Translations under genes and position numbers: made by a program
DNA from: Carcharhinus amblyrhynchos
Lineage: Eukaryota
Direction: 5' to 3'
Assembly (NCBI GenBank): GCA_965287045.1
Contig: OZ336871.1
Location: 42,408,001 to 42,472,000, forward strand
DNA: 64,000 bases
Notes under the pieces: generated by a model
Database searches by the model: none
What the model was told of the DNA's origin: nothing
Seen by the model: the letters and a program-made list of their open reading frames with translations, nothing else
Part shown: positions 2,575-61,732 of the stretch, piece by piece
Layout: every line of letters starts with the position of its first letter
Position numbering within the stretch: the stretch's first letter is position 1

Positions 2575-5500
2575 TGTGGGTGTTACACAAAAATAGAAAT
2601 ATGTATAATAACTCAGGAAGCCTGACCGCAAAGGAACATAGTTTATTTACAGAAGGTAAATTAAAACCGCTACCATGGTGTACACACATTGTCCTTGCCT
2701 GGGATTGCAGTTCAGCAGGCCCAGGCCTGAGCCTGCCTTATAAAAGCCTTAGGTAGTGAGCCACACAAGGAGACCAACCAATGATTCCCCATGGACCTCA
2801 TGGCAGTTATCACATCCCCTCTCCCCGAATGCAAAGGTTCGCCCCTTGCTCCCATGACAATGGGGCCTTCTCCGTCTCTTTGCCCATGGACTCATCTCTA
2901 TTGCTTGTAGGGTCTGGTCAGAGGGCATTCAAAGGGTCGGTGAATGCTTCTTCAGTCACTACAGGGAGGCTTGTCCTTGGTGGCAACTTCTGATTGGGTT
3001 TCCGCCACCTTATTTGTCTCCATATTGGAGCCAGAATCATCAGCGTCCTGAAGACTGGCTGTTGTGGTTTTAGTGGGTGGAATGGCCTGTCTGCAGGTTG
3101 GTGTGAAGGATGCCATTGATGGCATGTCCATAGAACCCATTGCTTCTGTGGAGGGTTCCCTGTGATAGAGGTGATCGGTGTGTTTTTTTTAAGGTCCTGT
3201 GCCTGTTTTACACCTTATAGGACACTGGTCCTATTTTCCTGAGAATAACTCCCAGAATCCATGGAGAGCCATCACCGAATTTCCTTACGTGGGAACATAT
3301 CTCCCAGTTTGAAGCCTCTATCTGGTCTCTGACTATCATGGCTCTGTCTTTTATCTCAACATTGCTGGCCGAATTTGGGAATGTCAGGCGAAACCTAGTC
3401 CGAAGGAGTCGGCCTGTTAATAACTCCACCGGGGCTATTCCCATTGTCATATGCGGCATAATCCTTGGTGGGGTTTTCGAGATGGCCAGGTACTGTCAGA
3501 AATGTTAGACAGTACAAGATTCACGAAACCAGTGTCTGAGTTTAAAGATGTAACCTTTATTTTAACCAGGGGCTCTTGGAGAAATCAGCTCCTAAGATGG
3601 AGCAACTAGACGTCTCCAATGATTTCTGACACATATAATTCAAAACAGACGAATTATAGATTTTCTTATCAATTACTTCCCTCTGTTATTAGCTTTAAAT
3701 CAATCATCTTCAGTATATATAAATCAACAAAAATACCTGTCATATACTTCAGCCAGTCACATCTTACCCTCTGGCATAATAGCATTTTATTAGAATGTGG
3801 ATGCTTTCTTCCCTTTTGGCTAACTCAGCTTCCTCTGTTGCTTAGTAACCTCAGATGCTAGCCACAAAGTTCAAAGTGAATGTTCCCATAAGTTCCCCAC
3901 AGGTCACTGCCAACCCTGGTTAACACATGATTCCACTTTTAGGCATGCAACCATCTTATCTGGGCAGTGAATAAACCCTAATCATGACGTTTGATTAAGT
4001 ATTCTGAATGTTCTTATCATTAGAAACTCTGCTGATTAAAAACTTGCGTATTTCCAAGGTTTCAGTATTCCCTTAGAATATGGCTTTCTCCTAATGCTCT
4101 TTACCATGATGCTTTGCAGCAATCTGCCTCAATGCTGGTAGTTCTGTCGGTGTCTTAATGTTGAATGGTTTAAAAATCTTTACTAACCTATGAGGATTTC
4201 TTCTCTTTACAAACCTATAGTTAAAAAGGAAATGTGCGAATTTAGTTTGCAGTGAACCTGTGGTTTGTTTCTTCATGCAACTTTTTAATGTCTGGACTAT
4301 CCGCTCAGCCAGGCCATTTGAGGATGGGTAGTTGGATGCCATGTGGATGTGCCTTATTCTGTTCACACTCATGTAGGTTGGAAATTCCCTGCTGGTAAAA
4401 GGGGTCCCTCTGTTGGTTATAAGAGTTTTGGGTATATTATGCATACTGAAGGATTGATGAAGTTTCTCTATGGCATTGAAAGAGGTAGTTGAGGACATTT
4501 GGTGCGTGTCAATCCATTTTGAATGGGCATCTATGAAACATAGAGGTTATAAATGTCCCTGCGAAGTCTGCATGGACTCCCCAGCTTGTCCCAAGGATGC
4601 AACAAGGGGCTTTCTGGTTTTCCTGGCAAGTTTTACACTGTTTGACCAGGTTTTTGATACACTGTCAATGCCAGGCCATCAGACATAGCTCCTTGCGAGC
4701 ATTTTCATCTTAGAAACTCCTGGGTGGCCAGTGTGCAATTCTAAAGTATTGGTCACTGATCTGGACATGGGACAACCACCCGGGCTCCCCACAAGATGAA
4801 GCCATTTTCCATACTCCTGATATTTTGAGAGATAGGGTTTCAAATCCTCTGTCAGATGTCTTGTGGTCCATCACTTAGGACGAAGTGATGTAGTTTTGCC
4901 AGCATAGGGTTATTTTGGGTAAATACCTGGATTTGCTTGGTGGATACTGGCAGAGAGTGCATGAAGTTCAAAGTCATGGCAACTTCATCCATACTCGGGG
5001 GGGAAGGTAGACAGATGGGTAAGTGGCAGGCAGCTCTTATATATGGCATATATAGGACGATGTTCTAAGGAACGTTTATAGGCACCAAATACCAATGCTC
5101 AGTGTTAGATCTGGGATGATGACATGGGAGGAATCGCCTTGTCTTCCTTGAAGAGGAAGACAAACCACAGAGGTTTGTGATCAGTTACTACGGTGAAATG
5201 CAGACTAGATATACTGGTGGAATTTTTTCACCACAAACGCCATGGCCAAATCTTTTTCAGTCTGGACATACTTCCTCACTGCATCTGCCAAGCTCTGTGA
5301 TGCCTACATGATTGGACATTCTGTTCCATCGCCCCAACGATGCAACAATACCATTCCTACCTCAGAGGGGGAGGTGTTTGCAGGTCACAATGCCTCATGT
5401 CAGTGGGACATAATGGGGCTAATATACTTTTTGAAAGCAATTGTTGTAGCAAAAGCTTCCTCTTCTGGCATTTGCCATGAACACTTCTGCTTTTTTTTAA

Positions 5501-8270: not shown

Positions 8271-10215
8271 AACATAGAACATAGAACATAGAACATTACA
8301 GCGCAGAACAGGCCCTTCGGCCCACGATGTTGCGCTGACCAGTTACAAAAACAATGACCCACTAGCCTATACCAATCCCTTTTCGTCCATAAACCTATCC
8401 AGAGATCTCTTAAACGCCCCCAAACTAGACGCATTTACAACTGCAGCAGGCAGGGCATTCCAATCCCTCACCACCCGCTGGGTAAAGAAACTACCCCTGA
8501 CATCCGTCCTGTAGCTACCCCCCCTTAATTTAAAGCCATGCCCCCTTGTGCTAGCTTTCTCCATCCGAGGAAAAAGGCTATCACTATCCACCCTATCTAA
8601 ACCTCTAATCATCTTATATGTTTCAATAAGATCCCCTCTTAGCCGCCTTCTTTCCAACGAAAACAACCCTAAATCCCTCAGTCTCTCCTCATAGGACCTC
8701 CCCACCATACCAGGCAACATCCTAGTAAACCTCCTCTGCACCCTCTCCAACGCCTCCACATCCTTCTTGTAATGCGGGGACCAGAACTGCACACAGTACT
8801 CCAAGTGCGGCCGCACCAGAGTTGTGTACAGTTGCAACATGACGCTGCGACTCCTAAATTCAATCCCCCTACCAATAAACGCCAAGACACCGTACGCCTT
8901 CTTAACAACCTTATCTACTTGATTCCCAACTTTCAGGGATCTATGTACACATACACCTAGATCCCTCTGTTCATCCACACTATTCAAAGTCCTCCCGTTA
9001 GCCCTATACTCGACACATCTGTTGCTCCTACCAAAGTGAATTACCTCACACTTCTCCGCATTAAATTCCATCCGCCACCTCTCGGCCCAGCTCTGCAACC
9101 TATCTAAGTCTCCCTGCAGACTATGACACCCTTCCTCACAATCTACCACACCTCCAACTTTGGTGTCATCAGCAAATTTACTAATCCACCCAACTATACC
9201 CTCATCCAGATCATTAATAAAAATTACAAACAACAGTGGCCCCAAAACAGATCCCTGAGGCACACCACTCGTAACTGAACTCCATGATGAATATTTACCA
9301 TCAACCACCACCCTCTGTCTCCTATCTGATAGCCAATTCCTGATCCAACTTCCTAGATTACCCACAATCCCATACATCTGCATTTTCTGCAGAAGCCTAC
9401 CATGGTGAACCTTATCGAACGCCTTACTAAAATCCATATATACCACGTCAACTGCCTTGCCCCCATCCACCTCTTTGGTCACCTTCTCAAAAAACTCAAT
9501 AAGGTTAGTAAGGCACGACCTACCCGCTACAAAACCATGCTGACTATTTCTAATCAATTCATTACACTCCAAATAACTATAAATCCTATCCCTAATAATT
9601 TTTTCTAAAACCTTGCCCACAACAGAAGTAAGACTCACCGGTCTATAATTCCTGGCAAAGTCTCTGTTCCCCTTCTTAAACAATGGGACAACATTCGCTA
9701 TCCTCCAATCCTCCGGGACTACACCAGAGACCAATGACGACCTGAAGATCAGAGCCAGAGGCTCTGCAATCACCTCTCTAGCCTCCCAGAGAATCCTAGG
9801 GTAGATCCCATCCGGACCAGGGGACTTATCTATTTTCAGCCCCTCAAGAATTTCCAGCACATCCCCCTTATCAACCGTAATACTGTCTATTTTACACCCC
9901 TGCAACCCAATGTCCTCCTCAGCTATATTCATGTCCCCCTGCGTGAACACTGAAGAGAAATATTGGTTCAATACTTCTCCAATCTCCTCCGGTTCCACAC
10001 ACAACTTCCCCCTGCTGTCTGTAACTGACCCTAATCTTGCCCTGACCAACCTTCTGTTCTTGACATACCTATAGAACGCCTTAGGATTCTCCTTAATCCT
10101 ATCAGCCAAAGTCTTCTCATGTCCTCTTTTAGCCCTTCTCAACTCACTCTTCAACTCCCTCCTAGCCAATCTAAAGCTTTCCAGTGCACTATCTGAGCCC
10201 TCAAATCTCATCATT
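8271..10215 (-). mobile_element. Young 5'-truncated CR1 LINE with an uninterrupted RT reading frame
   Basis: ORF 8367-10256 contains KSPGPDGIYP, NYRPVSLTS, DFSKAFD, GVPQGSVLGPLLF, FADD and WNALP. (atagaac)n microsatellite tail at 8271-8295. No endonuclease domain. Confidence 0.97.
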
Positions 10216-10879
10216 GGGGCTGAGTGCACAGGTGGGCAGACTGAAACCCCACCCATCCTAGTGAAATTGACATTTCCTCTCTGTCAGAGGAGTTTAGAAG
10301 GGTCTGCTCACACCTACAGCTTCTGGCAGGGAGAAAGGAAAATCTCTGCTGCAGAAAAGGTGCTGCAGTCATTTAAAATGCTATGACCGAGGCGGGCATG
10401 GAGATTAAAGTGACCTGGCCATTTCAGAATTTTCACAGCTAACAGGCAGGAATGCCTGAAATCACCATGCCAAGGGTGATCTTCATGTCTGACAGGGCTA
10501 AAAGGGGCAGTCCAGGGGTCTGAGGGACAAGGGGAGTTGAGTGAGGGGGGATCTGAGGGAGAAGGGGGCATGAGTGAGAAGATCTGAGGGAGAAGGGGGC
10601 TTGAGTTAAATATTTGGGTCAGTGATGGATCCCAGCAATGCCTACAGCCATGGAGTGCAGGTCTGAGCATAAACCTGGAGGATCTGCTGGACCAAGATTT
10701 GCATGGCAGTACCTACCTTCCCCTGATGACATTGAGGCGTTGACATGTTGGAGCTATGACATCAGACAGAACGAAAATGGACTCTCCCATCCTTCAATCC
10801 AGTCTGCTGAGTGACTACAACACTGTGTTAGCAGCACCCTGCAGAGGTTCATCATCTTAGACACAGTGGGTGGCTTTCT

Positions 10880-11338: not shown

Positions 11339-14049
11339 GATCTCCAGTAATCCTCTGAGTTCACTGCAGAGCATCCTTCTCAAATTTGGAGATTTCGTTG
11401 CCAGAGAGGTGAGGCCGGTGGAGCCATTCTTTGGACTCAGCACATTCTGGGGTTTGTGTACTCCTCTTATCGAAGCCTCGAGGGAGTCAGGGGCTAAACC
11501 TCAGGGCAGCCTTCTCCCGTTGTTGCTGTGCAGACATTTCTGAAGGTCAGCTGGACTGGACAGAGTGAAATGTGTGAACTTGATGGCATTTAAATATGGT
11601 GCTCAGACCTTTGACCTTATTAGGTAACAGTGGGTGGACAAATCATTTCCTGATCCTCCATATGATTCAGAATAATTAATTAGCTTCTGACTAGCATGAA
11701 ATGTGCTATGGAACCCACCCAACACAGCATTCAGTTTTACAAATGGAAACGGTGAGAAATGGGCACAAGGTTGATATCTGGTACGATTGTGAGGCGAGAA
11801 ATCAAGTGCGAACTTGATTTCTCGGCTCTCACAATCTTACCAGCTCTCCCCATCCATGGGCTGGCGGAGAGTAATGATAAGATCACCCCAGTGTTACCAA
11901 TTATGGGGTGATCTCATATAAAGTTCAAAAATACAAGAATGTGGCTAATGAATCCAATATGGAATTCAGGAGAAATGACTGAGCGGAAGGTGAGAATGTG
12001 GTTCTCCCTACCACCTGGATTGGCTGAGGTAACTGGAATAAATGGATTTAAGGTAAGCTAGATAATTACAACGTGGGAGAGAGGAACACAGAAATCTGAC
12101 AGGATGAAATGGAGTAAGGTTGAAGGAGTGGAGTGTAAATATTGTAAAAAAATTCAGGATGGTAAAATTCTATATGCAAATGAGGTAACGATCTTTGCAG
12201 TTTTAAAGAGAAATGTAATAAATATTTGGAGCAGAGGCAGGCTATGAATCAAGCAGAGAAGTGGGATTAGTTTTAATTGTTGCAGCAAAGAGCGGGGGCA
12301 GACATAGTGGGCTGGAATTCAGCTGATATGATTCACTGGGAACTGCAAGGGTGTGGTCAGTGAGGTACAGGAAAACCAGAAGCCTGAAACTTGGCTTCCA
12401 CTTGGACAGAGAACAGATCAGTGGAGGCCACAGAACGATGAAGGTCTGTGGCAGAGTTGTGGGTGGGTGGTCTCACCTTGCCTCTCTTGGGTTGGAGGCA
12501 AGGGGTCGAGGCCAGGAGCATGGGTGAGGAAGTGCGTCAATTCAGGGGAAGAGAGAAACTGGATGACTGGGTGAATAGGATCCAACTGAAGTGCTAAGGG
12601 GGGGAAGGGGCGGGGGGGCATCCAGCGTCCTTTGGGTGAATCAGAACTTAGGGAAGAATTTGAGGCATAGGCTTGGGGAGGGGGGTCAGAAAAAGGTCAC
12701 AGAGGCCAGGCGAGGACAGGAAATTAGAGGCCTGGAGTTGGCTCAATGAACCTGAGGCAAAGGTTAGCGGTCATCTCGTTGGATGCTGTTTGACCAGCTA
12801 TTTCCAACTTTTTCTGTTTTTATTTCAGATCTCTCGTGTCTGCAGTATCTAGCATTAGATAGACTGGAAACCTCATCATTAATTTTAAAAATAAAGAGTA
12901 TCATTCCAATTCATGGCTCCACTTAAAGAAAATGTCCTTAAGAAAACCTCAGGGGATGGGAGTTGGTGAGGTTGAGGGCTAGCAGTGGGGTGTAAACTGA
13001 ATTCTGAGCTTCATCTCATTGGGGACTTTGTCATTGATCCTGCCAAATTTTTCATGGGTAAAGGCGGAGATTTCCTACGGCAGGTAGCCAGGGTATATCT
13101 AGGCCACCTGGTTTAGGAAGTCCAGTAAAGGCTGTCCCTGGTGAACATCCCATCCCAGTGATTTCCTTTGAAAGATTCCTTTTAAAATGGCAAAGCAGGA
13201 ACTCCTTAAGTTAGGGAGCTTGTAGTCTTGCCCCTACTCCCCACTCCTATATCGATGGCCTTGTTTGGAATGAATGGAGGCTTCAGGTAACTGTGAGGAA
13301 AGTTCTGGAACCTGGTATCATTAGGTCCTGGTTTGATTTGTAACTCTTTGGCTATACTCCCATATGGCAAGAGTTTGCTTTTTGGCCAAAATGTTCTAAT
13401 GTTATATTTAGTAACGTATTAACAAAATTTCAATTGTCAGTCAGAATCATTAAGCTGAAATTTTTGTTAAGAGGACTGAAAGGAGTCAGGTTTGACCCTG
13501 GGCAGTGTGGAGATAGGATGCAATATCTGGCTATGATACAGAGAATAGACAGATGTCAGAAAACACTAGACTGAATTGGAAGTTTTTATTCTAGCTTTTA
13601 GCAAGATTCACATACAGTTTACTCATTAAAGTCAGATCATGTCATACGTCCTCTTTGCAAGCCCTTCTTAAATCCTTTATTTAGCCAAAATAATATCATT
13701 TAATCAGAAACACATGGTGAACAAAATGTACAACTTGTGATTGTTCATGGAAAAATAAACCATTTGTTTCATTAACTGAAGCGTTCAGTGTCTAGGAGCT
13801 CAGTCAGTTGCTCCTTTTCATTTTTCTCACTGATCTCTGTCATGCATTCTCTGGGGGACAAAATTAGATAGCACCTGAAGCTGGGCTGGGGATCACGAGA
13901 ACACATCTGACACAGGCAGTAGAAATTTTAGTACTGCCTGCACATTACCATGACTGAATGACACGCCCAGCACTAAATGTGTTGTTTCGTGGTTGCACAG
14001 GCTGGCAGTGCATAAGCACCATTTAAAGTTAGTCTGCAATACTTAAGAA

Positions 14050-14177
14050 GTGGAGATGCCAGTGTTGGACGGGAGTGGGCACAGTAACATGTCTCAACAC
14101 CAGGCTAAAGGCCAACAGGCTTATTTGGAATTACGAGCTTTCAGAGCATTGCTCCTTCATCAGGCTCCTTCACCAGG
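14050..14177 (-). mobile_element. Penelope pseudo-LTR fragment containing a hammerhead motif
   Basis: Homologous to the pLTR ends at 15677-15810 and 45560-45690. Minus strand reads CTGATGA-aggagcaatgctct-GAAA-gc-TC at 14135-14163. Confidence 0.8.
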
Positions 14178-15444: not shown

Positions 15445-15676
15445 TCATCCATGTGGTTGAACACCTGGGTTACTTCACATTTGATCCCTCCAATTACCCC
15501 TTACACCCTCGAGTCCTACTGAATATCAAATTACTCCACAAACTGACCCAAATACTCCCTGACCATCCAATTACTGTCAAACATGATCCAAATACCCCAC
15601 AACCCAGCTACACTCTGACCCTACTTCTCCTCAACCTGATCCAACTACCCCCTGGCCATCTGACTAATCTGCTTCA

Positions 15677-17142
15677 TGATGTGGGGATGCCAGTGTTGGA
15701 CTGGGGTAAACACAGTAAGAAGTTTCACAGCACCACGTTAAAGTCCAACAGGTCTATTTGGTAGCAAAAGCCAGTAGCTTTCAGAGCGCTGCTCCTTCGT
15801 CAGATAAGTGGGAGTTCTGCTCACCAACAGGGCGTATAAAGACACAAACTTGATTTACAAAATAATGGTTGGAATGGAAAACTTTAAGACTTGATTACCT
15901 GTAAAGGTACAGACAGTGTGAGTGTACACAGGCACCTCCATCAAGGACAGTCACCTCAGCACTTCACTGTACCGCAAGCCCACGGATAGCCTCACAATGC
16001 TCCACTTCTCCAGTTTCCACCCTAAACATGTTAAAGAAGCCATCCCCTATGGACAGGTCCTCGGTATACACAGGATCTGCTCAGATGAGAAGGATTGCAA
16101 CAGACACCTCCAGACGCTGAAAGATGCCCTCATAAGAACAGGATATGGTGCTCAACTCATCGATCGACAGTTTCAACACTCCACAGTGAAAAAACACACC
16201 CACCTCCTCAGAAGGCAAACACGGGACATGGTGAACAGAGTACCCTTGGTCATCCAGTACTTCCCCGGAGTGGAGAAGCTATAACATCTTCTCCGGAGCC
16301 TTCAACATGTCATTGATGAAGACGAACATCTCGCCAAGGCCATCTCCACACCCCACTTCTTGCCTTCAAACAACCGCACAACCTCAAACAGACTATTGTC
16401 CGCACAAACTACCCAGCCTTTAGTGACCACGACACCACACAACTCTGCCACAGCAACCTCTGCACGACGTGCTGGATCATCAACACAGATGCCATCATCT
16501 CGCATGAGAACACCATCCACCAGGTACATGGTACATACACTTGCAAGTCAGCAAATGTTGTCTATCTGATATGCTGCAGGAAAGGATGTCCTGAGGCATG
16601 GCACATTGGGGACACCATGCAGACGCTATGACAACGGATGAATGAACACCACTCGACAATAACCGTGCAAGAGTGTTCTCTTCCTGTTGGGGAACACTTC
16701 AGCAATCACAGGCATTCAGCCTCTGATCTTTGGGTAAGCATTCTCCAAAGCAGCCTTCATGACACATGTCAACGCAGAATCGCTGAGCAGAAACTGATAG
16801 CCAAGTTCTGCACACAATGAAGGCGGCTTCAACCAGGATCTTGGGTTCATGTTACACTATCTGTAATTCCCACGACTTGCCTGGGCTTGCAAAATCTCAC
16901 TGACTGTCCTGGCTGGAGACAATACACACCTGTGCATAACCCTCTCCACTCACATTGTCCGTACCTTTCAGACCTGATTACCTGTAAAGGCTTGCATTCC
17001 AATCATGATTTTGTAAATATAATTTTTGTATTTATGAACAGAACTCCCACTCGCCTGATGAAGGAGCAGCACTCTGAAAGCTTGTGGCTTGTGCTACCAT
17101 ATAAACATGTTGGACTTTAACTTGTGTTGTGAGATTTATAAG
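15677..17142 (+). mobile_element. Penelope-like element: inverted 5' pLTR, RT-thumb/GIY-YIG remnant, 3' pLTR
   Basis: LSTSLYRKPTD...FHPKHVKEAIPYGQ; NVVYLICC...HIGDT...RMNEH...VGEHFS. 15677-15925 is the reverse complement of the pLTR. TSD ctgcttca at 15669-15676 and 17143-17150. Confidence 0.92.
17055..17083 (+). ncRNA. Minimal type I hammerhead ribozyme motif in a Penelope pLTR
   Basis: cgc-CTGATGA-a-ggagcagcactct-GAAA-gc-TT-gtg: conserved core, stem II, palindromic AGCU stem III and a 3-bp stem I. Activity untested. Confidence 0.7.
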
Positions 17143-29160: not shown

Positions 29161-29897
29161 TCAGAAGAGGGCTGGATTGGTATGTTCTATAATACATCTT
29201 TTGCAATGGCGTTTCACAAACCGCAGTGCCTCAACAGAGATGTCACAGTCCTGCACATTCAACATCTGAAGCTCAAAGCAGTTGGCAGCAACAATTTTTA
29301 AACCACGGCCAGTGATGCTCTCGCATGACTTTAGACTCAGTCGCTTCAGGTTGTAACAGTTCAATGCTAAAAACTCCATGCCTGCATCAGAAACTAATGG
29401 ACACTTCCCAATATCTAGGGACTTCAGTTTTGTGCAATTTTTGGCAAGGTACTCAATCCCATGATCGGTTATTCCTTCGCAACCCCGAGCATTCAGATAG
29501 CGCAGTTTGCTGCAATACTTGGCAATGTAGCGGATACCCACGTCTGTGATCCGGCCACAGTGAGCAATGCTGAGATACTTCAGGTTTGCTTCCAATTTTG
29601 CCACCTCTCTCATCCCAAAATCACTTACTGCACGGCAGTCACTAACACTCAGTTCTTTGATTGTTGTGCAATAAAGCATCAGGTAACGGAGGCCCTCATC
29701 TGTGACACGTATACACCTGCGTAGGTAGAGATGGGTCAGCTGGGTGCAGTGAGCTGCTATCGTATGCAAACCCTCATCTTCAAGTACAAAGCAATCTGTC
29801 ATGTTCAGGTAGCGTATGGAGATTTGTTTTCCATGAAGTGGAGAGAGTTTGATGGAAGCTTCCCTTGTCAGACTAATGCAGGTTATCTTGGAACAAC
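29161..29897 (-). CDS. FBXL7: F-box/LRR-repeat protein 7, last coding exon (737 nt including TGA)
   Basis: Acceptor tttcttatctag|GTTGTTCC. Reads (G)CSKITCISLTREASIKLSPLHGKQISIRYLNMTDCFVLEDEGLHTIAAHC...RHCKRCIIEHTNPALF*, closely matching the vertebrate FBXL7 C-terminus. Confidence 0.97.
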
Positions 29898-30395
29898 CTA
29901 GATAAGAAATTGAAAATGGTGTTTTAAACTATTAACATGTAGGACTCATTAAAATAACTACATGGAAACTTCAAACACAAAAACAGTCTATTCAGTCCAT
30001 TTTGTCTATTGCATCTCTCCCACATACTATCCTACATGAACTTGAGGACATCCAAAACTCTGCTGCCTGTAGCATAAGTCACAGGAAGTCTCGGTCCACT
30101 ACCACCCCATGCTTGCTGACCTATGTGGCCTCCCAGTCAATCAATATTATGATTTTAAAATTCTCCATGTTTTCTCTCCATGACCTTGCCCCATGCAACT
30201 CTATAATTTTCTCTAAACTGTCAATCCTCCAAGATATTTGCATTCCTCTAATTCTGGCTTCTCCTGTATTCCCAATTATTAATACTTCACTATCAATGAT
30301 TGTGCCTTTAATTGTTCACACCCCCAAGCTCTGGAATTCTCTTCCTATACCTCTCTGCCTCGCTTTCTCATTTTAAAACACTTCTTAAAAACCAC

Positions 30396-32785: not shown

Positions 32786-33770
32786 CCACAGAACCACTGA
32801 ATCCCTACACTAACGAAGGAGGCCATTCGGTCCATTGAGCATGCACCAAAACTCCGAAAGAGCACCATACCAGGTCCAACTCCTGCTATATTCCCAAAAC
32901 CACATGCATTTACCATGGCTAGTCCACCTAATCTACACATAATTTTGGACCCTGAGGGGCAATTTAGCTTGGTGAATTCAAGGAACAAAACGGCACAGGA
33001 AACAAGCCCTTTGGCCCTCCAAGCCTGCGCTGCTCATGCTTCCAACTAGACTATTCATTTGTATCCCTCCATTCCCAGACTGTTCATGTGGCTATACAGA
33101 TAAGTCTTAAACAATCCCAGCATGTCCACCTCTACCACCTTGCTTAGCAGTGCATTCCAGGCCTCCACCACCCTCTGTGTAAAATACATCCCTCTGACAT
33201 CTGTGTTAAACCTTGTCCCCCTCACCTTGAACCACTGATCCCTTGTGTTTGTCACTTCCAACCTGGGAAAAAGTTTCCCATTGTTCACTCTATCTATGCC
33301 CTTCATAATTTTATACACCTCTATCAGGTTGCCCCTCATCCTCCGTCTTTCCAGAGAGAACAACCCAAGTCTACCCAATCTCTCCTCATAGCTAAGATCC
33401 TCCATACTAGGCAACACCCTGGTAAACCTTCTCTGCACTCTCTCCAAAGCCTCCATGTCCTTCTGGTAGTGAGGTGACCAGAACTGGACCAGAAGCAGTA
33501 TTCCAAATGTGGCCTAACCAACGTTCTATATAGCTGCAACATCATGTGCCAACTTTTATACTCTATGCCCCATCCTCTAAAGGCAAGCATGCCATATCAC
33601 TTCTTCATATGGAAGAATTCACCCAATGTGCACATCTTTAGTCTGTTGGAGGAAACTGGAGCAGCTGGAGGAAACCCACACAGACACTTGAGAATGTGCA
33701 AACTCTACTCAGACCCAAGGCCGGAATTGACCCTGATTCCCTGGCACTGTAAAGCAGCAATGCTAGCCCT
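32786..33770 (-). mobile_element. HE1-type SINE split by a CR1 insertion
   Basis: SINE 3' part at 32786-32980 and 5' part at 33615-33770. gaattca is duplicated at 32974-32980 and 33615-33621. Confidence 0.75.
32981..33614 (-). mobile_element. 5'-truncated CR1
   Basis: MLQLYRTLVRPHLEY...ALERVQRRFTR...FTQRVVEAWNAL, with a 7-bp TSD. Same subfamily as 37157-39790. Confidence 0.92.
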
Positions 33771-34641
33771 AGTGCATTTCAGATTCTCACCATCCTCTGA
33801 GTGATTTTTTTTTGTCAAATCTCCTCTGAATCTCCTGCCCCTCACCCTAAAACTATGCCCCCTCGTGATTAATCCTTGGATCAGTGGGTACTGCTGCTTC
33901 CTATCCACTATGCCCATATCCTTCATTATCTTATATACCTCAAGCATGTTCTCCCCTTAGCCTTCTCTGAAGTTCCCAGAACTGATCCCTCAGCTTGCCA
34001 ACCTAAAGAAGACCCATTTATCCATACTCTGTTTCCTGTTAGTAAATCAATTCTTCATCCATGGTAATATGTTACTCCCTACACCATGACCTTTTGTTTT
34101 TTTGGTATCTTGTGAAATGCATTTTGGAAAATCCATAGGTTCTCCTTTTGCCGTGTTGGTTCTTGCTTCCACAAAGAGCATGCTAATAAATACAAACACA
34201 AGTTCCCTTCCCCAAAACAATGTTGGCACTGCCAAATTTCAAGGTGATTTTCCTGCTGCTCTGATTTAACCTCCTTGACGATAGTTTCCAGCATTTTCCC
34301 TATGACCGATATTAGGCTAACTGACCTGTAGCTTCCAGCTTTCTCTCTCACTCCTTTCTTAATATGGAAGTGACATTCACTATCTTCCAAACTGATGGAA
34401 CCTTTCTGGAAACTAGGAATTTTTGGCTAATTAAAACCAATGCATCTATTACCTCAGTTGCTGTCCTTTTCCAAACCTAGGATGAAGTCATTAGGACCTG
34501 GAGAGTTGTTTGAATTTTAGTTTTAGCCTTTAATACTAATTATTTTCTTAGCACCCTTTCCCTGGTGGTTGTAGTTATTTTAAGTTCTTTCACCTCTTGA
34601 TTTACAATTATTTCTTGGAAGTCGTTTGGGTCTTCAACAGT

Positions 34642-34863
34642 AAACAGTAAGAAGTCTCACAACACCAGGTTAAAATCCAACAGTTCATTTCAGAGTGCTG
34701 CTCCTTCATCAGTTGAGTGGAGAGGTAGGTTTCACACTCCATTCACTTAATGAAGGAGCAGCGCTCTGAAAGCTCATGATTCCAAATAAACCTGTTGGAC
34801 TTTAAACTGGTGGTGTGAGAATTCTTACTGTGCCCACCCCTGTCCAATGCTGGCATCTCCATA
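34642..34863. mobile_element. Palindromic mini-Penelope (two inverted pLTR ends)
   Basis: Arms are reverse complements around about 34730. 11-bp TSD tcttcaacagt at 34631-34641 and 34864-34874. Confidence 0.88.
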
Positions 34864-35650
34864 TCTTCAACAGTGAAGACAGATGGCTGGAACTTTCTAG
34901 CCATTCAGATGGGATCTTCTGGTGCTGCCAATGGCAAATTCCCATCATGGGTTTTATGATGGTGAGAGGTGTATTAAAGGGAAACCCTGCGCATAATGGC
35001 AGAATGTGAAGATTCTGCCACTGACCAATGGTGGTCTTCTCTTTCCACTGCAAAATCCTGCCTAATATCTGTCCAATGCACCTGCCATTTCCTTATTTCC
35101 CAATATTATTTCTCCAAAGTTAATCTCCAGATGAGAAATGCATACATTAGTTGTTGCTTTCCTTTTTAAGTACCTGTAGAAGATATTACTATCTGTTTAT
35201 ATTTCTAGCTAGCTTTCTCACATACTCTAATTTTTATTTCATTATTTTAAAAATCATTCTTTGCTGGTTTTTAATTTTATATGTAGTCTGGAATATTTTC
35301 ATGAACTTCTTGAACAGTATCTTTTCTAACCAACTAGGTATTTTAGATCTTCTATTGTGTAATGAGGCAAACATAGAGGATAAGACCCTCTGGCAAAAGG
35401 TGATTATAACATCAATTGAATTCCATATTAAATTTGAGAGCAACATACCAAACAAGAAACTTCACATTAAACAAATCCAATCATATAGGTATGAGAGGAG
35501 AAATGGCTAAGGTTGATTGAGTAAATAGGCCAATAGGAATGGCGAACAGTGAAAACATTTAAGGAAACAATTCAAAATGATGAGCAAGAAAGCATTCTAT
35601 TAAAAAACAAAATTCAGCAAGGAAGAGCCATTTGTGACTTACTAAGGAAG

Positions 35651-35931
35651 GGCACAACACCAGGTTAAAATCCAACAGGGTTTATTTGGAATCATAGACT
35701 TTCAGAGTGCTGCTCCTTCATCAGGTGAGTGACTCACCTGACGAAGGAGCAGCGCTCCTAAAATTCATGATTAAAGTTAAAGTTTATTTATTTGTCACAA
35801 GCAAGGCTTACATTAACATTGCAATGGATTTACTAAGAAATTCCCCTAAATATGAGATTCCAAATAAACCTGATGGACTTTAACCTGATGTTGTAAGACC
35901 ATCCCAGTCCAACATTGGCATCTCCACATCA
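35651..35931. mobile_element. Palindromic mini-Penelope with a SINE tail in its right arm
   Basis: Centre tcaggtgagt-g-actcacctga at 35721-35741. TSD ttactaagg at 35639-35647 and 35932-35940. 35772-35850 is the reverse complement of the SINE tail seen at 56273-56320. Confidence 0.88.
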
Positions 35932-36009
35932 TTACTAAGGTAGTTAAGGATAATACTGGATTACAAAAAGAGGCTAATAATATTGCAATGAATAATATTA
36001 AGCCAGGAA

Positions 36010-37156: not shown

Positions 37157-39790
37157 AAAGAACAAAGAACAATACAGCACAGGAACAGGCCCTTCTACCC
37201 TCTAAGCCTGTGCCGCTCATGCACCCAACTAGACCATTCGTTTGTATCCCTCTATTCCCAGTCTGTTCATGTGGCTACCTAGATAAGTCTTAAATGATCC
37301 CAGCATGTTCACCTCAACCACCTTGCTTGGCAGTGCATTTCAAGCACCCACAACCCTCTGTGTAAAATACGTCCCCCTTCGTTCCACATCTGTGTTGAAC
37401 CGTGCCCCCTCACCTTGAACTTGTGACCCCTTGTGTTCGTCACCTCCAACCTGGGAAAAAGTTTCCACTGTTCACCCTATTTATGCCCTTCATAATTTTA
37501 TACATCTCTATTAGGTCGCCCCTCATCCTCCGTCTTTCCAGGGAGAACAACCCCAGTTCACCCAATCTCTCCTCACAGCTACAACCCTCCATATCAGGCA
37601 ACATCCTGGTAAACCTTTTCTGCACTCTCTCCAAAGCCTCCACATCCTTCTGATAGTGTGGTGAACAGAACTGGACGCAGTATTCCAAATGTGGCCTAAC
37701 CAACGTTCTATATAGCTGCAACATCATATGCCAACTTTTATACTCTATGCCCTGTCCTATAAAGGCAAGCATGCCATATGCCTTCTTCACCACCCTCTCC
37801 ACCTGTGCTGCCACCTTTAAGGATCTGTGGACTTGCACAGTCAGGTCCCTCTGTGTGTCTATACTCCTGATGGTTCTGCCATTTATTGTATAGCTCCCCC
37901 CTACATTAGATCTACTGAAATGCATCACTTCGCATTTATCTGGATTAAATTCCATCTGCCATTTCTCTACCCAATTTTCCAGCCTATCTATATCCTGCTG
38001 TATTCTCTGACAATGTTCATCATTATCCGCAACTCAGCCATCTTTGTGTCGTCCTCAAACTTACTGATCACACCAGCTACATCTTCTTCCAAATCATATA
38101 TGTATATCACAAACAGCAGAGGTCCCAGTACAGAGCCCTGCTGAACACTTCTAGTCACAGACCTCCAACCAGAAAAAGACTGCTCCACTGCTACCCTCTG
38201 TCTTCTATGATCAAGCCAGTTCTCCACCCATCTAGCTAGCTCACCTTTTATCCAGTGAGATTTAACCTTTTGCACCAGCCTGCCATGAGGGACCTTGTCA
38301 AACACTTTACTAAAATCCATACAGACGACATCCATGGTCCTTCCCTCGTCAATTGTTTTTGTCACCTCCTCAAAAAACTCAACCAAACTTGTGAGGCATG
38401 ACCTCCCTTGTACAAAACCATGTTGTCCATCGCTAATGAGATTATTCAGTTCTAAATGTGCACATATCCTATCTCTAAGAATCTTCTCCAACAATTTCCC
38501 TACCACGGATGTTAAGCTCACCGGCCTATAATTACCCGGGTTATCCTTGCTACCCTTCTTAAATAACGGGACTACATTTGCTATCCTCCAATCCTCTGGG
38601 ACCTCACTTGTGTTGAGACAAAGATTTCTGTTAGAGGCCCAGCAATTTCATCTCTTGTCTCCCTGAGCAGTCTAGGATAGATGCCATCAGGCCCTGGGGA
38701 TTTGTCTGTCTTAATGTTTCCTAAAAAATATAACACTTCCTCCCTTGTAATTGAGATTTTTTCTAACGGGTCAACACATCCCTCTGAGACACTAGCAGTC
38801 AACATGTCCCTACATGTCCCTCTCCTTTGTGAATACTGATGCCAAGTATTCATTTAGGATCTCACCTACTTCGTTGGGTTCTAAGCATAATTCCCCTCCT
38901 TTGTCCCTGAGAGGTCCGACTCTTTTTCTGACAACCCTCTTGTTCCTAACATATGTATAAAATGCCTTAGGATTCTCCTTAATCCTGTCTGCCAAGGACA
39001 TTTTGTGTCCCCTTTTTGCCCTTCTAATTCCCTGTTTGAGTTCTACTTCCTCAGTATTCTTCCAATGCGCCATCTGTTTTTAGCTGTCTGGACCTTACAT
39101 AAGCCTCTTTTTTCTTTTTGATTAGACCCATAATTTCACTGGTTATCCATGGCTCTTGAATCCTACCTTTCCTATCCTTTTTTTATAGGCACATACCTGT
39201 CCTGCAGCCCTATCAACTGCTCCTTAAAAGACTCCCACATGCCAGATGTGGATTTACCCTCGAACAGCCTCTCCCAATCAACAGCCACCAAATCCTGCCT
39301 AATCTGGCTGTAGTTAGCCTTCCCCCAATTCAGCACCTTACCCATAGGACAACACTCATCTTTTTCCATTACTATCCTAAAGTTTACAGAATTGTGGTCA
39401 CTATTTGCCACATGTTCCCCTACTGAAACTTTGACAACCTCTCCGGGCTCATCCCCCAGTACTAGGTCCAGTGTAGCCCTCTCTCTAGTTGGACTATCAA
39501 CATATTGTTCCAAAGAACATTTTATAAATTCCTCCCTGTCCAGACCCCCAGCCCTAAGCGATTTCCAGACTATACTAGGGAAATTAAAGTCTCCCACTAT
39601 AACAACCCTATTTTTTCTGCACCTGTCCAGAATCTCCTTACATAGCCGTTCCTCCACTTCCCATGGGCTGTTGGGAGGCCTGTAGTATATATACCCCCAG
39701 CATAGTGACTGCACCCTTCCTGTTTCTGAGCTCCACAGTGACTCGTTACATGACTCTTCCAAATTGTCCACCCTCTGTTTATCCATCCAT
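37157..39790 (-). mobile_element. Long CR1 ORF2 pseudogene (APE endonuclease and RT, frameshifted)
   Basis: YYRPPNS..VGDFNFP..LDLVL..NSDHNSV endonuclease; DFSKVFDKVPH, QGSVLGPLLF and FEDD RT motifs; (caaagaa)n tail. Confidence 0.95.
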
Positions 39791-40568: not shown

Positions 40569-41777
40569 CTGATTGTTCAGAAATTTTCTGGATATTTGAT
40601 TCCTGAGCCTAGAATGAAAATTTGACCCAAAGATTCTGAACTTCATTTTTTTTCCTATTTAATGATCTGTTAGCATTTTATTTGGTATAATAATTTTAAA
40701 AATAGCTGATGGGTTGATTTTCCAAGCCAGCATCCAAGGAACTCTTAACGTCCTAGGGCAATATGAAGGGAATAAAATTACCTGCGCCTGAATGTGAATT
40801 CCCACGGGCTGATCTCATGACTTGAGCAGAATTGTCAATGACATGATCCATAGGGAACTGATCTGTCAGAAGTGCCATTGTTTGGGATTCCTCCACATGT
40901 TGCAGAGTTTTTATTCCACAGCATGCTGTGGACATAAGTGATTACTTTCTCATCTGGAGGCCCAGTTTGATTGACAGCTGGGCCTTCAGTCAAACAGGCA
41001 ACTGGCCCTGACTACAGCGGCAGCAACATCAATGAATTGATTTGATCAGTGATGTGATGAGGAAGGATGCTTGATTGTTTTGGGGAATAGTGGAGGGATT
41101 GGCTGATTCTGGGTGTTGCAGGAAGCTAGGGAGAAGGTCGGAGCCTCAGGAGAAGGCCTGGAGATGGATGGTGAGGTGGGAGGGCAGCTCAGGAAACCCA
41201 GCTGACAACAGTAAATGTCCAAAAGCTGAATGATAATGAGATTTTTTTTCACATTTAAAGCTCTAGCCTGCCCACCTTCCAGCGTCAGTTAAAGCTGGAA
41301 TTAGGAAAATTGGAGGCAACTTTGAGTTAGGAAGCAGGTTTTCTAACTTTAAACTCCAATCCAACTCCAGCCCACCCATTCTCTGCCGTCAAACGATCCC
41401 CTTCCCTCCAGTTGTTTCTATTTACTCTATTTTGGTTAATTGGCAACACCTATTGGAAAGTAGGACTGTGTCATATTTGTGATGCCTGCCCATACACTAT
41501 GTTTTAGCAGTGCCATGCTATGATTTATTAGCAGGAACATTTTTGGGGTAATTTTGTCATTGATTTATATTTACTCAACCTCTCCAAGTACCTGCCTAAC
41601 CCAAGATGAAATGTGTCTTGTTGCAATAGTGAGCTGGATAGATGGATCATATTTACCCAACTGATGCACAGAGTTTGACAGACATTTTTATTTCTGCCTT
41701 GTAGCTAAGAGCCAAATATGCAGGTACTTGGATTATTGCCAACTTGGGTCAAGGATCTGCACTTACTGTACCATTAC

Positions 41778-42389
41778 CTGAAACATCCAAGTACTCCAGG
41801 TTAGGACACCGGGAAACAACATCATAGAGTGCTTCATTGGAGATGTTGTAACATCCTGGCACTTCTAGCTGCCGTAGCTCTGGACAGCACTGAGCAATGG
41901 TGTAGAGACCCCTATCAGTAAGCCGCCTGCAGCCTTGAACAATGACTGTTTCCAACATAAGGCATACATTAGGTGTATCCTGACACAATCTTCGGGTAAG
42001 TACTCGCAGAGCTCTGTCCACGTTCACTGTTTCGCCAGTCAGACGAATAGTCCTCCACAATCGTGCGTCCCAGCATAAGTTGTACCAGCGCCGGCACACT
42101 CTTGCACAACGGCAGAGCTGGTTGGTAGGGAGGTGTGAAAACATCTGGATCAAGGTTTGGTCTGGTAGCCTGTCAATCGGAGTCTGTTCTTTCTGTAGCC
42201 TCGATGCTGGCCTGATGGCACATTGCGGTATAAGGAACAAAGGCTGGGAGTGGATCATAGCGATGGTCTCCCCTGTGACTGAAGAGGATGAAGTGGAGGA
42301 TCCTTGGCCATTTTGAAAAGATTGCACATTCTGAGGACAGATAAATGCAGGGCTTGGTGTGCTCAATGTCCGCATACTCAAGTCTGAAT
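41778..42389 (-). CDS. FBXL7: F-box/LRR-repeat protein 7, penultimate coding exon (612 nt, F-box)
   Basis: Acceptor gtattccag|ATTCAGAC and donor TCAG|gtaatg. Reads (D)SDLSMRTLSTPSPA...IDRLPDQTLIQMFSHLPTNQLCRCARVCRRWYNLCWD...LEYLDVS(G). The phase-1 end joins the last exon in frame. Confidence 0.97.
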
Positions 42390-42572
42390 CTGGAATACAT
42401 ACAGAACATCTCTATTAGTGAACAATAATGTTGGAATTACAACTAATATGCAGCACAAAAACAAGATATTTATTCCCAACAAGTCAATGCTGGTGTTTGT
42501 GCTGCACACAAGCTTCGTCTCATGCTATTTCATCTAACCCTATCAGCGTAGCTTCTTAGAAAACACTACCCT

Positions 42573-44415: not shown

Positions 44416-45780
44416 CATTTAGCTACCTCACCCTCGATTCCATGAGATTTAACCTTATGCAAAAACCTACCATACAATACCTTGTCAAAGGCCTTGCCAA
44501 AGTCCACGTAGACAACATCATCTGCACTGCCCTCATTTACCTTCTTGGTTACCCCTTCAAAAAACTCGATCAAATTTGTGGGACATGATTTTCCACTCAA
44601 AGCCATGCTGGCTGTCCCTAATCAGATCTTGTGTCTCTAAATGCCTCTAAATCCTGTCTCTCAAAATATCATACAACAACTTACCCACCATGAGTCCAAA
44701 AGAAGAAAATGTAATCGATGAAGCTGCACCGACCTCCTCAGAAGACAAACATGGGACACGGCGGACAAATTAATCTTCGTTGTCCAGTACTTCCCCGGAG
44801 CGGAGAAGCTACCACATCTTCTCCGGAGCCTTCAACATGTCATTGGTGAAGACGATCATCTCATCAAAGCCCCACTCCCACTTCTTGCCTTCAAACAACC
44901 GCACAACCTCAAATGGACCATTGTCTGCAGCAAACTACCCAGCCTTCAGGAGAACAGTGACCATGACACAACACAATCCTTCCACAGCAACCTCTGCATG
45001 ATGTACCGGATCATTGACACAGATGCCATCATCTCACAGGTACACAGTACATACTCTTGCAACTCGGCCAACATTGTCTACCTGATACGCTGCAGGGTGT
45101 CCCGAGGCATGGTACATTGGGGAGACCATGCAGACACTACAACAACAGATGAATGAACTCTGCTTGACGATCACCAGGCAACAGTGTTCTCTCCCTGTTG
45201 GGGAACACTTCAGCGCTCATGGGCATTCGGCTTCTGATCTTCAGATAAGTGTCCTCCAATGCGGCCTTCACAACACACGACAACTCAAAGTCGCTGAGCA
45301 GAGACTGATAGTCAAGTTCCACATGCATGAAGACAGACTCAACAAGGATCTGGGGTACATGTCACACTATCTGTAACCCCCATGACTTGCCTAATCTTGC
45401 AAAATCTCACTAACTGTCCTGGCTGGAGACAATACACATCTCTCCACTCACATCGTCTGTACCTGTAAGACTTGATTAACTGTAAAGACTTGTATTCCAA
45501 CCATTATTTTGGAAACTGAGTTTGTGTTTTTATATGCCCTGTTTGTGAACAGAACGCCCACTTACCTGACAAAGGAGCTGTGCTCCGAAAGCTAGTGACT
45601 TTTGCTACCAGGTAAACCTGTTGGACTTTAACCTGGTGTTGTGAGACCTCTTACTGTGTTTACTCCAGCAATGCCAGCATCTCCACATCATGACCTCTCC
45701 AGTGGCCAGAGAGGATTTGAATATTAGCACCAGAGCCCCTACAATCTCTTCCTCTCTTGCCTCACACAGCAGCCCACTTA
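44410..45780 (-). mobile_element. CR1 RT fragment split by a Penelope insertion
   Basis: NLIEFFEGVTKKVNEGSADDVVYVDFGKAFDKV at 44403-44606, resuming after 45692. Confidence 0.8.
44694..45688 (+). mobile_element. 5'-truncated Penelope-like element (GIY-YIG remnant and pLTR)
   Basis: Colinear with 16190-17135: NIVYLIRC..WYIGETMQTL..VGEHFS. Hammerhead-like core at 45566-45594 with CTGACAA. catga occurs on both flanks. Confidence 0.9.
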
Positions 45781-58172: not shown

Positions 58173-59077
58173 CCTGAATGGTCAGAGAATTCCAGTCAAA
58201 ATGATTGGCACAAGAACCAGAGGTGACACAAGATTTTATTTTTATGCAATGAGTGGTGAGGATTTAGAATGGTCAATATGGTGGTGAACACATTCAACTG
58301 GAACCTCCAAAAGAAATTTGGATGGTTGTAGGAACAAAAATTGCAGGGTTATATATAAAAAAAAGAGCGAGAGAGTGGAATTAACTGGATTGCTCTTTCA
58401 AAGAGCCACCACAGACACAATGGGCCTTTTGTACTCCATTACGTTATGATTCCCATTTCAGCACTTCCAAATTACTGGCACAGAACAACATCCAACATCG
58501 GTCGAGGGTGTGAGGATCATCAAGACCACGTAATCGCTGCCTGTTCAAGCAGAGTTAGAACTCTGGATAAACTAATGCTTCACAACAAAATATTTCAAAA
58601 GGAAATATTCATGTTGTATTTTTCTCTGCCAGTTAAGTTGTGACATAACAGAATTAACTTAGGTTACATTAATGAGTGCGATGCTACAGTACTTTCCACC
58701 TCACTTTTTCTTAAAATGTATTCTGGATAAAACAATGGAGCTGACACTAGCACCAAAAATGGAGGCTGTGGGTGGTCTATACATGGGAAAGTTCACGTTG
58801 TAGGAGATATCACTCACCAGGTGACCTCTGTGATATTAGCAATCTTAAGAAAAAGCCTGAGATTGAACTTTTAAAGGGTGACATGGTCCAACAAAAATAA
58901 GATGCTTAACACTAACTTTCCTTGTATTAAGTTATAATCTGCAAAATTGATGGTATGGCAAGTCTGATATACAGGCCAGGGAGAGTCCCTGCTATCTTTA
59001 GGTATTTACTGTAACAATATTTAAACGCACAGCCTTTTGTCTGTAATGCTTTACTTAATGACTGCTCAGGTACATCT

Positions 59078-59721
59078 GTAAGAAGTCTCACAACACCAGG
59101 TTAAAGTCCAACAGGTTTATTTGGTAGCAAAAGCCACCAGCTTTTGGAGCGCTGCTCCTTCATCAGGTGAGTGGGATTTCAGTTCACAAAGCAGGGCATA
59201 TAAAGAGACATAAACTCAATTTACAAAATAATGGTTGGAATGCGAGTCTTTACAGGTAATCAAGTCTTAAAGGTACAGGCAATGTGAGTGGAGAGAGGGT
59301 TAAGCACAGGTTAAAGAGATGCGTACTGTCTCCAGCCAGGACAGTTAGTGAGAATTTGCAAGCCCAGGCAAGTTGTGGGGGGTTACAGATAGTGTGACAT
59401 GAACCCAAGATCCTGGTTGAGGTTGTTGTCCTAGCTGGAGACAACACACATCTCTTTAACCTGTGCTTAACCCTCTCTCACTCACATTGTCTGTACCTTT
59501 AAGGCTTGATTACTTGTAAAGACTCGCATTCCAACTATTATTTTGTAAATTGAGTTTGTGTCTTTATATGCCCTGTTTGTGAACGGAACTCCCACTTACC
59601 TGTCGAAGGAGCAGCACTCAAAGCTCGTGGCTTTTGCTACCAAATAAACCTGTTGGACTTTAACCTGGTGTTGTGAGACTTCTTACTGTGTTTATCCTAG
59701 TCCATCGCTGGCATCTTCACA
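59078..59721. mobile_element. Palindromic Penelope insertion made of two inverted pLTRs
   Basis: 59078-59345 is the reverse complement of 59428-59687. Exact 12-bp TSD tcaggtacatct at 59066-59077 and 59722-59733. Confidence 0.93.
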
Positions 59722-61732
59722 TCAGGTACATCTACTTAGAGGACTTCCTAAAAAAAAAATCAGGTGTCTTGTTTTATAGTCAAAAACAACAAAATACTGT
59801 CTTATAGTGGTCAAAATCACACATGTAGCTGGATAATGTGAAGATTTTGCCAATCCAAATATTATAGAATATAAAATAGAATATACAGGTGTCAATCAGA
59901 TGCCAGTCAGTCATGTCAAATAAACATTGGCAGATGATTGCCTACATGTTGTGTTGAGGGACCAGTACCCTGGCATTGTGGAAGTGTAAGTTCTGCCACT
60001 CACATTACCTGTTACCGCTACAGGTTCTGGAATAAGTTTGCTTCTAAAACACTGCACAGAAGTAAGATGCATGCAAGTTAAAATAAATTGCATCAGAGCT
60101 ATTGCCTGACAGATAATCAGAAAATGCAATATATCAATCTAATTGACATAAATGTGTTTATTTTTCTCGAATGGATTGATACGAAAAGCTTATTGAACTC
60201 ATTTTGAACTAATTTGAACTAATTTCCTCAGGCTAAAGCTCAAGCGGTAAGAGAAAAGTCAATTTGAACAGTTTACAGTAGAAACACTTTTTGAGCACAA
60301 TTTTCTTGTGACACAAATAGTGGCATTATAAATCACAAAGTAATCTGAAATAAAATCTCATGTTTGCTCCAAAAATTACAACAAATTACAACATTATCAT
60401 GGTGGCTACCAGTGGACTTGCATCCAGTTTCTAGAAAATGAAAGGTTCATCTTCACTATGAATCAGTTAATGACAGCTCAGCTTAGTCATTTTGTTAGTC
60501 TACCTGCATGTACATTATGTATATATCGAGTCAAAACCCTCCTGATAGCCTACAGTTCTGTATTTCTGTTGGGGCAGGTGTTTTTCTCAAATTTAGATGG
60601 ATGTGTAGGACTGCGAGAAAACTGTCAGTCACTGTCATATTCAACCAGACAAATTTAATGTTCTACATTGATATAAAATAAATAAGAAATGATTTAAACC
60701 ATCTGCAGCAGTTAAACAAAAACATTCTCGCTTTGGCAATGTATTCTTTCAAATCTTTGCACATTAGATCCCAAGATCCAGTTACATCTCCAGGACAGTG
60801 AAAATAGAATTTGCAATACCAATAGATTTACGCAGATGGTAATATGCTAAAGTCTGGAGGATTCTATCTCACGGCTTAATCGTGGTTCTTTGAAAGGAAG
60901 CAAAATACTTTGTTTTCTGGCTGTTTTAATTTATTCCTTACATTCCTGTTCTAAAGTATAGTGGATTATTTTCAGTTCATTAATCAGTAAGCTGGGAATA
61001 ATGCTAAAGATATTACTTGACCAGTTGTCTGTCCAGACTATTAATTTATTTTGTTCCTGTACGATGAAAATTTGTATTGAATAAAAATTAATAAAGCAGA
61101 TATTGCAGAATACTGGAAACTTTCCACATGTGATGTTGGAAAATTTATGACATAATTTATTAGAATGGTTCCACGGATGGAGATCAGGTTGCAACCCTCT
61201 TGGGACAGCTAGGAGTCAACCGGAATTGGCATCAATGTCCCACAGGCCAAAGAAATCATTCCAGGAGATTGGAACATGATGGCTTCTTTGTCTGCCAGTA
61301 TCCAGTCTGCACATGTGCTCACAACATCAGCAGTGAAGAGAGGCAGGGAGAAGCTCCCTTCTGGGTTTGTTTGGTCTGTGACATGTTTTAGCAGGTAGCT
61401 GACACTACATGCAGAGGGCCTGCACGCTCAGTGTTTTGACAGATGCCAGGAAGAAAAAGCTCTTGACTGTTTCCAAACTAAAGTTATTGAGGCAATGGGG
61501 GTAGTTGTTTGAAAATAATTCCATTTACTGTGGTTCTGCCTATCTGACCAGCCCATGATAACTTCCTGCAGCTGATCGCTATTCTCCTCACTATTTACCA
61601 CCTTTGGTAGAATCTGCAAACTTCTTAATCATATCCCCTACATTTAAGTCCAAATCATTAATGTACACCACTGATAGCATGGGCTCCATCGTGGAGCCCT
61701 ACGGAACCCACTGAAAACACAACTATTAATCT

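Follow-up and report, generated by a model that had tools for sequence, protein, structure and literature searches.

The window analyzed here is a 64,000-nt stretch of the Carcharhinus amblyrhynchos genome (contig OZ336871.1, positions 42,408,001 to 42,472,000), and all positions below are counted within it. Two minus-strand exons of an F-box/LRR gene that looks FBXL7-like lie at 29161–29928 (LRR) and 41749–42411 (F-box), and the intron between them contains two short inverted units that are the subject of this analysis (Table 1). The same intron holds a pair of LINE-type fragments (about 33000–33600 and 37180–38650). Elsewhere on the minus strand, the window carries an apparently young LINE-type reverse transcriptase, presumably CR1-like, in an open frame of 638 aa (8367–10283), and a fragment that by eye resembles the integrase core of LTR retrotransposons (4091–4546).

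Table 1. Positions within the window of the two units, their parts, and other copies of the same element family.
Feature	Positions	Strand	Remarks
Unit 1 left TSD	34631–34644	+	Exact 11 bp = 34631–34641; 14 bp if one mismatch is allowed
Unit 1 untailed pLTR arm	34644–34736	−	Reaches 18 nt upstream of putative start site
Unit 1 junction filler	34737–34738		2 nt
Unit 1 tailed pLTR arm	34739–34865	+	−2 to about +130
Unit 1 right TSD	34864–34877	+	2-nt overlap with tail end
Unit 2 left TSD	35639–35650	+	Exact 9 bp = 35639–35647; 12 bp with one mismatch
Unit 2 untailed arm	35651–35730	−	Ends at putative start site, +1 = 35730
Single G	35731	+	Position −1 of unit 2 tailed arm; long copies have C there
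Unit 2 tailed arm	35732–35931	+	Begins at +1; interrupted by later insertion
Insertion of 3′ end of another abundant repeat	35773–35855	−	~83 nt; 4-nt duplication at edges
Unit 2 right TSD	35932–35943	+	
Longer head-to-head pair	15676–17137		1.46 kb; 12-bp TSD with one mismatch; untailed arm enters broken thumb/endonuclease frame
Intermediate head-to-head pair	59077–59724		648 bp; 12-bp TSD
Single tailed arm with broken GIY-YIG endonuclease remnant	44720–45693	+	Served to find intact parents
Single tailed arm	14047–14164	−	Truncated just inside hammerhead

An earlier reading made from the letters of this stretch (the sequence-only reading) had described both units as inverted pLTR ends of a Penelope-like element (PLE), inserted as discrete units. 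This was verified: in each unit, two arms lie head to head at the coordinates it gave and are flanked by their own TSDs, exact over 11 bp in unit 1 and 9 bp in unit 2. The one-mismatch versions of 14 and 12 bp fit the 9–16 bp found at other copies. In both units, the right arm alone has a tail of ~35 nt, which in full-length copies ends at the ORF start codon. In unit 1, each arm has sequence that is missing from the other. Its arms, stopping at −2 and −18, are products of ordinary truncation. In unit 2, the two cores meet at a palindrome with a 1-nt center, as had been reported, and the center is a G. The 281-bp length of this unit is due to ~83 nt of foreign repeat inside its right arm; this piece had 93 matches in the 1.2 Mb that we sampled, and we take it to be SINE-like. 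The gene-sense strands of both units fold strongly, at −109.7 kcal/mol for unit 1 (z −11.7) and −119.3 kcal/mol for unit 2 (z −10.3), with 0 of 200 shuffles as good in either case. An Rfam search at unit 2 returned a microRNA-type match that was far below threshold and reflects a generic hairpin.

The hammerheads were identified by hand against the description of minimal hammerheads in the available text of PMC4209133, and an Rfam search over the units found no hammerhead at E ≤ 10. The core pattern matched nine times in the window vs. 0.00 expected. All four hammerheads of the two units are broken. The untailed arm of unit 1 retains the CUGAUGA core and stem II, and a ~17-nt deletion has taken out the 3′ side of stem I together with stem III and the cleavage site; its tailed arm is mutated at C3 and G5. 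In unit 2, the untailed arm has an intact core at 35724 with a scrambled stem III and cleavage triplet, and the tailed arm is mutated at G12 and in stem III. The earlier description of the cores as partly mutated was thus right about mutation and too mild about its extent, as every one of the four lacks a core or cleavage-site element. At 35724–35730, and across the family, the antisense of the 5′ flank of the hammerhead reads as a consensus splice donor (CAG/GTGAGT), so that intronic Penelope-like copies could supply cryptic splice donors.

To place the units in a family, we relied on parents outside the window. A Pfam search did not detect the broken frame remnants within it. A genome search with the window's endonuclease frame found near-intact parents; L141 and L142 have open frames of 995 and 917 aa that contain RVT_1 (E 9e-10). 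A GIY-YIG/CCHH motif with two internal Cys was read by eye in both (Pfam gave the endonuclease no score), and the RT–EN linker contains C-X4-C-xx-C in L142, with the first Cys replaced in L141. Both loci have the pLTR at the two ends of the ORF plus an inverted copy at the 5′ end, with the hammerhead in the leader and the AUG at the end of the tail. The RT with a C-terminal GIY-YIG, pLTRs at both ends, one-sided tail, and variable TSD are those of EN+ PLEs, and by its Cys linker the family is a Neptune/Nematis-type PLE. Of the two names, we prefer Neptune, on our assumption about its distribution in vertebrates. The group is defined by a CX2-5CxxC linker between RT and EN, according to the available part of PMC8557442. 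The parents carry the same pLTR, and the Penelope pLTR origin and the minimal hammerheads given in the sequence-only reading are both supported. Across the family, pair sizes grade from ~100 bp to 1.5 kb, with the largest reaching into the ORF. In long pairs at L143 (6000–6250), L144 (3900–4200), and L148 (5700–5830), the inversion junction fuses distant ORF positions with the same geometry as in the small units.

Although the copies in units 1 and 2 are broken, the motif of the family fits a minimal type I hammerhead, with the core, a bulged nucleotide, stem II, a palindromic 15.2–16.2, and a short stem I. Among 212 copies, stem II had at least 3 bp in 198 and GC occupied 15.2–16.2 in 196; excluding 88 copies of a variant that had been chosen by exact patterns, stem II had at least 3 bp in 110 of 124. 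Compensatory G-C/A-U swaps occur in stem II across the family, and all core bases were kept in 18 of the 53 sampled arms spanning the motif. In otherwise near-identical young copies (L121–L150, L301–L320), stem II and its loop are hypervariable with pairing kept.

It had also been proposed that such a unit presents a ribozyme whichever strand is transcribed, and the predicted folding speaks against this. In a transcript of an intact young unit from either strand, the antisense arm is made first and there is only one sense motif, with which that arm is predicted to pair; adopting the hammerhead fold is predicted to cost about 65 kcal/mol relative to the hairpin. The available text of PMC4209133 reports no cleavage for single motifs of the minimal class and a need for two sense copies. 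Arm ends did not pile up at the cleavage site (about +35): 5 of 116 fell within +34 to +38 vs. about 4 expected from neighboring positions, a comparison of low power. The hammerheads would be passengers, with the hairpin predicted to trap them.

We estimated abundance from 120 stretches of 10 kb taken at round positions on contigs C1–C35 (1.2 Mb), keeping arms that began at or before +70 and reached +55. This sample contained 102 arms and 30 head-to-head pairs, which extrapolates genome-wide to roughly 250,000 arms, about 70,000–73,000 pairs, and about 50,000 short pairs (330 bp or less). Units 1 and 2 are therefore ordinary members of a very abundant family. Among 34 close neighbors, 30 were head to head and 2 were on the same strand in tandem. 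Of the 30 pairs, 26 had one tail, 4 had none, and none had two. Outer ends clustered at +80 to +99 (49 of 102 arms) and +120 to +139 (44 of 102), about 35 nt apart, whereas inner ends were scattered from +60 to beyond −200. Arms within a pair were only slightly more alike than arms of different loci (0.90 vs. 0.85), and the partner was the best match in 3 of 30 pairs.

The central proposal of the sequence-only reading was that the units belong to a self-propagating, non-coding hairpin or retrozyme-like family. In such a family, a palindromic RNA would be transcribed, undergo processing by its own hammerheads, and be inserted anew as a whole. It had suggested counting copies of the two junctions, and this count gave a mixed result. 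The unit 1 junction had a single match in the genome (2.9 Gb searched, one mismatch allowed), while an exact search with the unit 2 junction found 15 loci, a recurrence that would be expected of such a family. However, these loci comprise at least 4 subfamily variants, in both polarities, and among the 13 in which a tail was found, 8 have G at the center and 5 have C. We also searched with a pattern for short junctions, which matched 175 loci; among the 50 listed, nearly all centers differed and 4 matched unit 2. In the sample, no junction was repeated among the 21 short pairs, both hammerheads were spanned in only 4 of these, and both cores were intact, by our own pattern, in none.

Young copies gave a similar picture. 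Ten loci with one identical perfect-palindrome junction carry 7 stem II variants in their tailed arms, and the variant was common to both arms in 6 of the 10. A second junction of the same subfamily, present at 10 loci (about 11 rows among 100 matches listed), behaved in the same way. Two loci, L301 and L302, share both junction and arm variant, which together with the covarying stem II and the very high copy number would agree with copying of whole units; the covariation can also be explained by selection in autonomous parents. In three insertions (L307, L309, and L315), stem II differs between the arms, which might mean two different template RNAs. No shared junction was found to be inherited within one subfamily. 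Because the unit 2 junction recurs across subfamilies, we read it as a preferred stop rather than a sign of descent. Likewise, loci that share a junction differ in subfamily while arms within a locus usually match, which indicates repeated formation at a fixed stop and not copying of units. The size series into the ORF, the lack of a promoter in either unit, the predicted sequestering of the hammerhead, and the scarcity of tandems, unlike the retrozymes in the available text of PMC7229834, also count against the hairpin family, which we regard as largely refuted and as very improbable for these units.

Instead, we think it likely that the units are decayed, promoterless insertion stumps of the Neptune/Nematis-type PLE, remade at each landing by priming from two ends, with unit 2 keeping the G of the cap. 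In this model, the PLE protein would cut both target strands and RNA would be copied from both cut ends, with one of them primed next to the AUG, where the tail ends, and its partner ~35 nt upstream. Each cDNA would then stop independently, and the two would be joined by end-joining with microhomology or filler. Most arms would be random 5′ truncations, as in unit 1, whereas a minority (about 4–6%) would run off the capped 5′ end of a transcript whose start would lie just before the hammerhead, 30 nt downstream of a TATA motif, and would retain the G, as in unit 2. Priming one target end at each RNA site yields a single tailed arm and a single untailed arm, head to head within a TSD; end-joining gives the fillers and microhomologies observed at junctions; and a fixed stop at a capped start would make the same palindromic junction recur without inheritance. 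Precedents come from the available portions of two papers: with an anole PLE in vitro, two RT start sites flank the tail, both strands are cut and extended, and uncleaved RNA is used (PMC11167929), and twin priming is described for L1 (PMC11702581).

Alternatively, a single cDNA could fold back and copy itself, or an antisense template could be used for self-priming (the proposal in the available text of PMC3846280), with endonuclease resolution leaving the one-sided tail. Near-perfect palindromes with 0–1-nt centers, identical arms at many young loci, and fillers copied from nearby element sequence are all compatible with this. Yet no arm made by fold-back can contain sequence absent from its template, and the untailed arm reached further upstream in 13 of the 21 short pairs (tailed arm 7, tie 1; in the 4 tail-less sampled pairs, the arm with the longer 3′ end was labeled tailed), as well as in unit 1; in the longer pair of the window it did so by hundreds of bases. 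From this, we infer that both arms need an RNA template. The extra G described below also occurs on tailed and untailed arms alike. We therefore consider fold-back an unlikely explanation and favor priming from both cut ends.

If some arms run off a capped RNA, their ends should mark a start site. Of 42 long arms, 31 have a TATA motif followed by an A at a spacing of 30 nt (the filter allowed about 26–37), which is the usual distance from TATA to a Pol II start. This A, taken as +1, is two bases upstream of stem I, and units 1 and 2 both lack the TATA motif. We counted the bases at junctions from exact-match patterns, which are biased toward well-preserved copies. At −1, where long copies have C, the 59 non-C bases counted by eye comprised 43 G, 11 A, and 5 T, and a script count on 30 fetched loci gave 25 G and 5 A. 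As controls, G made up 5 of 33 at −2 (by eye, 100 matches listed of 121) and 13 of 56 at +2 (by eye), so that the excess at −1 was significant against each (Fisher p about 1e-7). A second subfamily showed the same pattern, with G at 36 of 58 true ends (p 7e-6; by eye, 100 rows listed of 366), after 33 long-arm substitutions were dropped and 19 palindrome rows were counted as their 10 loci. Non-template bases at +1 included G in 4 of 9 (by eye, among the matches listed). G at −1 occurred in 6 of 100 listed of 385, a rough rate from a count that also took in the template base.

In the available text of PMC11702581, an extra G at complete 5′ ends of L1 is a cap signature, and a copied mRNA cap is likewise the likely source of the G at −1 in arms ending 30 nt after TATA. 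The G often equals the templated base of the partner arm, which leaves individual loci ambiguous, unit 2 among them. The G at the center of unit 2 is thus likely a copy of the cap, and it could alternatively be the templated −1 base of the partner arm. At L328–L333, L338, L163, and L167, the G has no template in the partner; these loci were hand-picked and give no rate. Among other Penelope-like elements, a TATA-less internal promoter was reported for D. virilis Penelope (PMC2377424) and a putative TATA and Inr for an Adineta element (PMC3846280, available text).

These data could also arise if the stumps form independently, as above, but the −1 G is a joining artifact and the recurrent stop is a pause that structure imposes at the base of stem I of the hammerhead, rather than the capped start. 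The frequent agreement of the G with the partner's sequence would favor an artifact, and the distance of only 2 nt between +1 and stem I would favor a pause. Moreover, the unbiased sample showed no visible peak at +1 and had G at −1 in just 1 of 23 informative arms. Still, the G is specific to −1, is found there again in the second subfamily, appears at loci whose partner arm gives no template for it, and has a conserved TATA motif exactly 30 nt upstream, and microhomology to the template would favor C rather than G. On balance, an artifact or pause seems improbable.

Outside the arm ends, T was enriched, at 27 of 43 positions before the extra G and 27 of 33 with non-C at −2, possibly through untemplated A addition to cDNA ends or through microhomology. 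A spliced 5′ exon was considered as the source of the G and rejected, because the template has CC rather than AG at −2/−1 and there is no common sequence upstream of −2. None of 24 tailed arms with G at −1 extended into the ORF, so that an origin of the leader in ORF-bearing mRNA is only a possibility. Loci L305 and L309 were rejected as full-length copies, as they reach only 12–17 nt into the ORF. Similarly, some tailed arms run 12–17 nt beyond the usual tail end into the ORF (L321 6819–6963, L322 967–1107, L325, and L326), which suggests that a template bearing the ORF is, more rarely, primed at a third site.

Taken one step further, the stumps may well serve as a genomic 5′-RACE of a vertebrate Penelope-like element, and we lean toward this reading, with somewhat less assurance than for two-end priming itself. 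Tens of thousands of insertions would then record copying of the cap by the RT, a transcription start two bases ahead of the hammerhead under an upstream TATA promoter, the use of uncleaved template, and priming of both target ends at two fixed RNA sites. If this is true, a single model would account for the inverted pLTR, for the tail on one side only, and for the requirement of tandem copies. Provided that the start site is placed correctly, run-off copies from capped RNA have no promoter, which would explain why active copies must be partial tandems. The origin of inverted pLTRs and tails is named as an open question in the available parts of PMC8557442 and PMC3846280, and the arm ends give a precise model for it, with two priming sites, both target ends, and cap run-off. 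In addition, the extrapolated ~70,000 pairs would add many long hairpins to intronic RNA.

Several known systems share parts of this architecture, and we compare them here as described in the available portions of the cited papers. L1 insertions (PMC11702581) share the inverted segment, the intact TSD, joins with microhomology or filler, and the extra G at complete 5′ ends. However, the second primer of L1 lands near the first cDNA end and yields adjacent pieces, whereas the two arms here both begin close to one end, so that a single sequence is present twice. The Anolis Poseidon element PAc (Frangieh et al. 2024, PMC11167929) is from another clade and has its tail about 110 nt within the ORF rather than ending at the AUG, and inverted arms and a cap G are not addressed in the portion of that paper available. 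Our literature search turned up no paper that treats twin priming in Penelope-like elements or a cap G in them (in main texts, with few subscription journals) and none on Neptune elements in sharks (also with few subscription journals covered).

The family hammerhead shares with the minimal PLE hammerheads (Cervera and De la Pena 2014, PMC4209133) an extra nucleotide between 9 and 10.1, G10.1-C11.1, a palindromic 15.2–16.2 without loop 3, and a 4-bp stem I. In Schistosoma, the same study describes dual motifs 100–700 bp apart on opposite strands, with most dispersed motifs tied to truncated PLEs. Cartilaginous fish are not named in its available text, and the four copies in our two units are broken. 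Non-LTR retrozymes (PMC7229834; bioRxiv 10.64898/2026.07.22.740005) are also small, non-coding, PLE-derived, and equipped with a type I hammerhead. Yet retrozymes are head-to-tail tandems with same-strand hammerheads and circular RNA, whereas our copies form inverted pairs in which each transcript has a single sense motif, and head-to-tail same-strand units were nearly absent among the 34 neighbors (2 vs. 30 head to head).

The layout also matches insertions of EN+ PLEs (Pen2a_Av in PMC3846280; scheme in PMC8557442, both in the parts available), which share the inverted, 5′-truncated pLTR, a one-sided tail of 30–40 bp, a TSD of about 9–14 bp, a palindrome at the junction, and a TATA/Inr-like motif in the pLTR. 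The head-to-head layout is therefore already published, and the element itself is an ordinary product of a known class. By contrast with those insertions, both arms here are cut to about 100 bp, there is no ORF, and about 70,000 pairs are extrapolated. Whereas those papers propose self-priming or endonuclease resolution, our data favor two RNA-templated arms.
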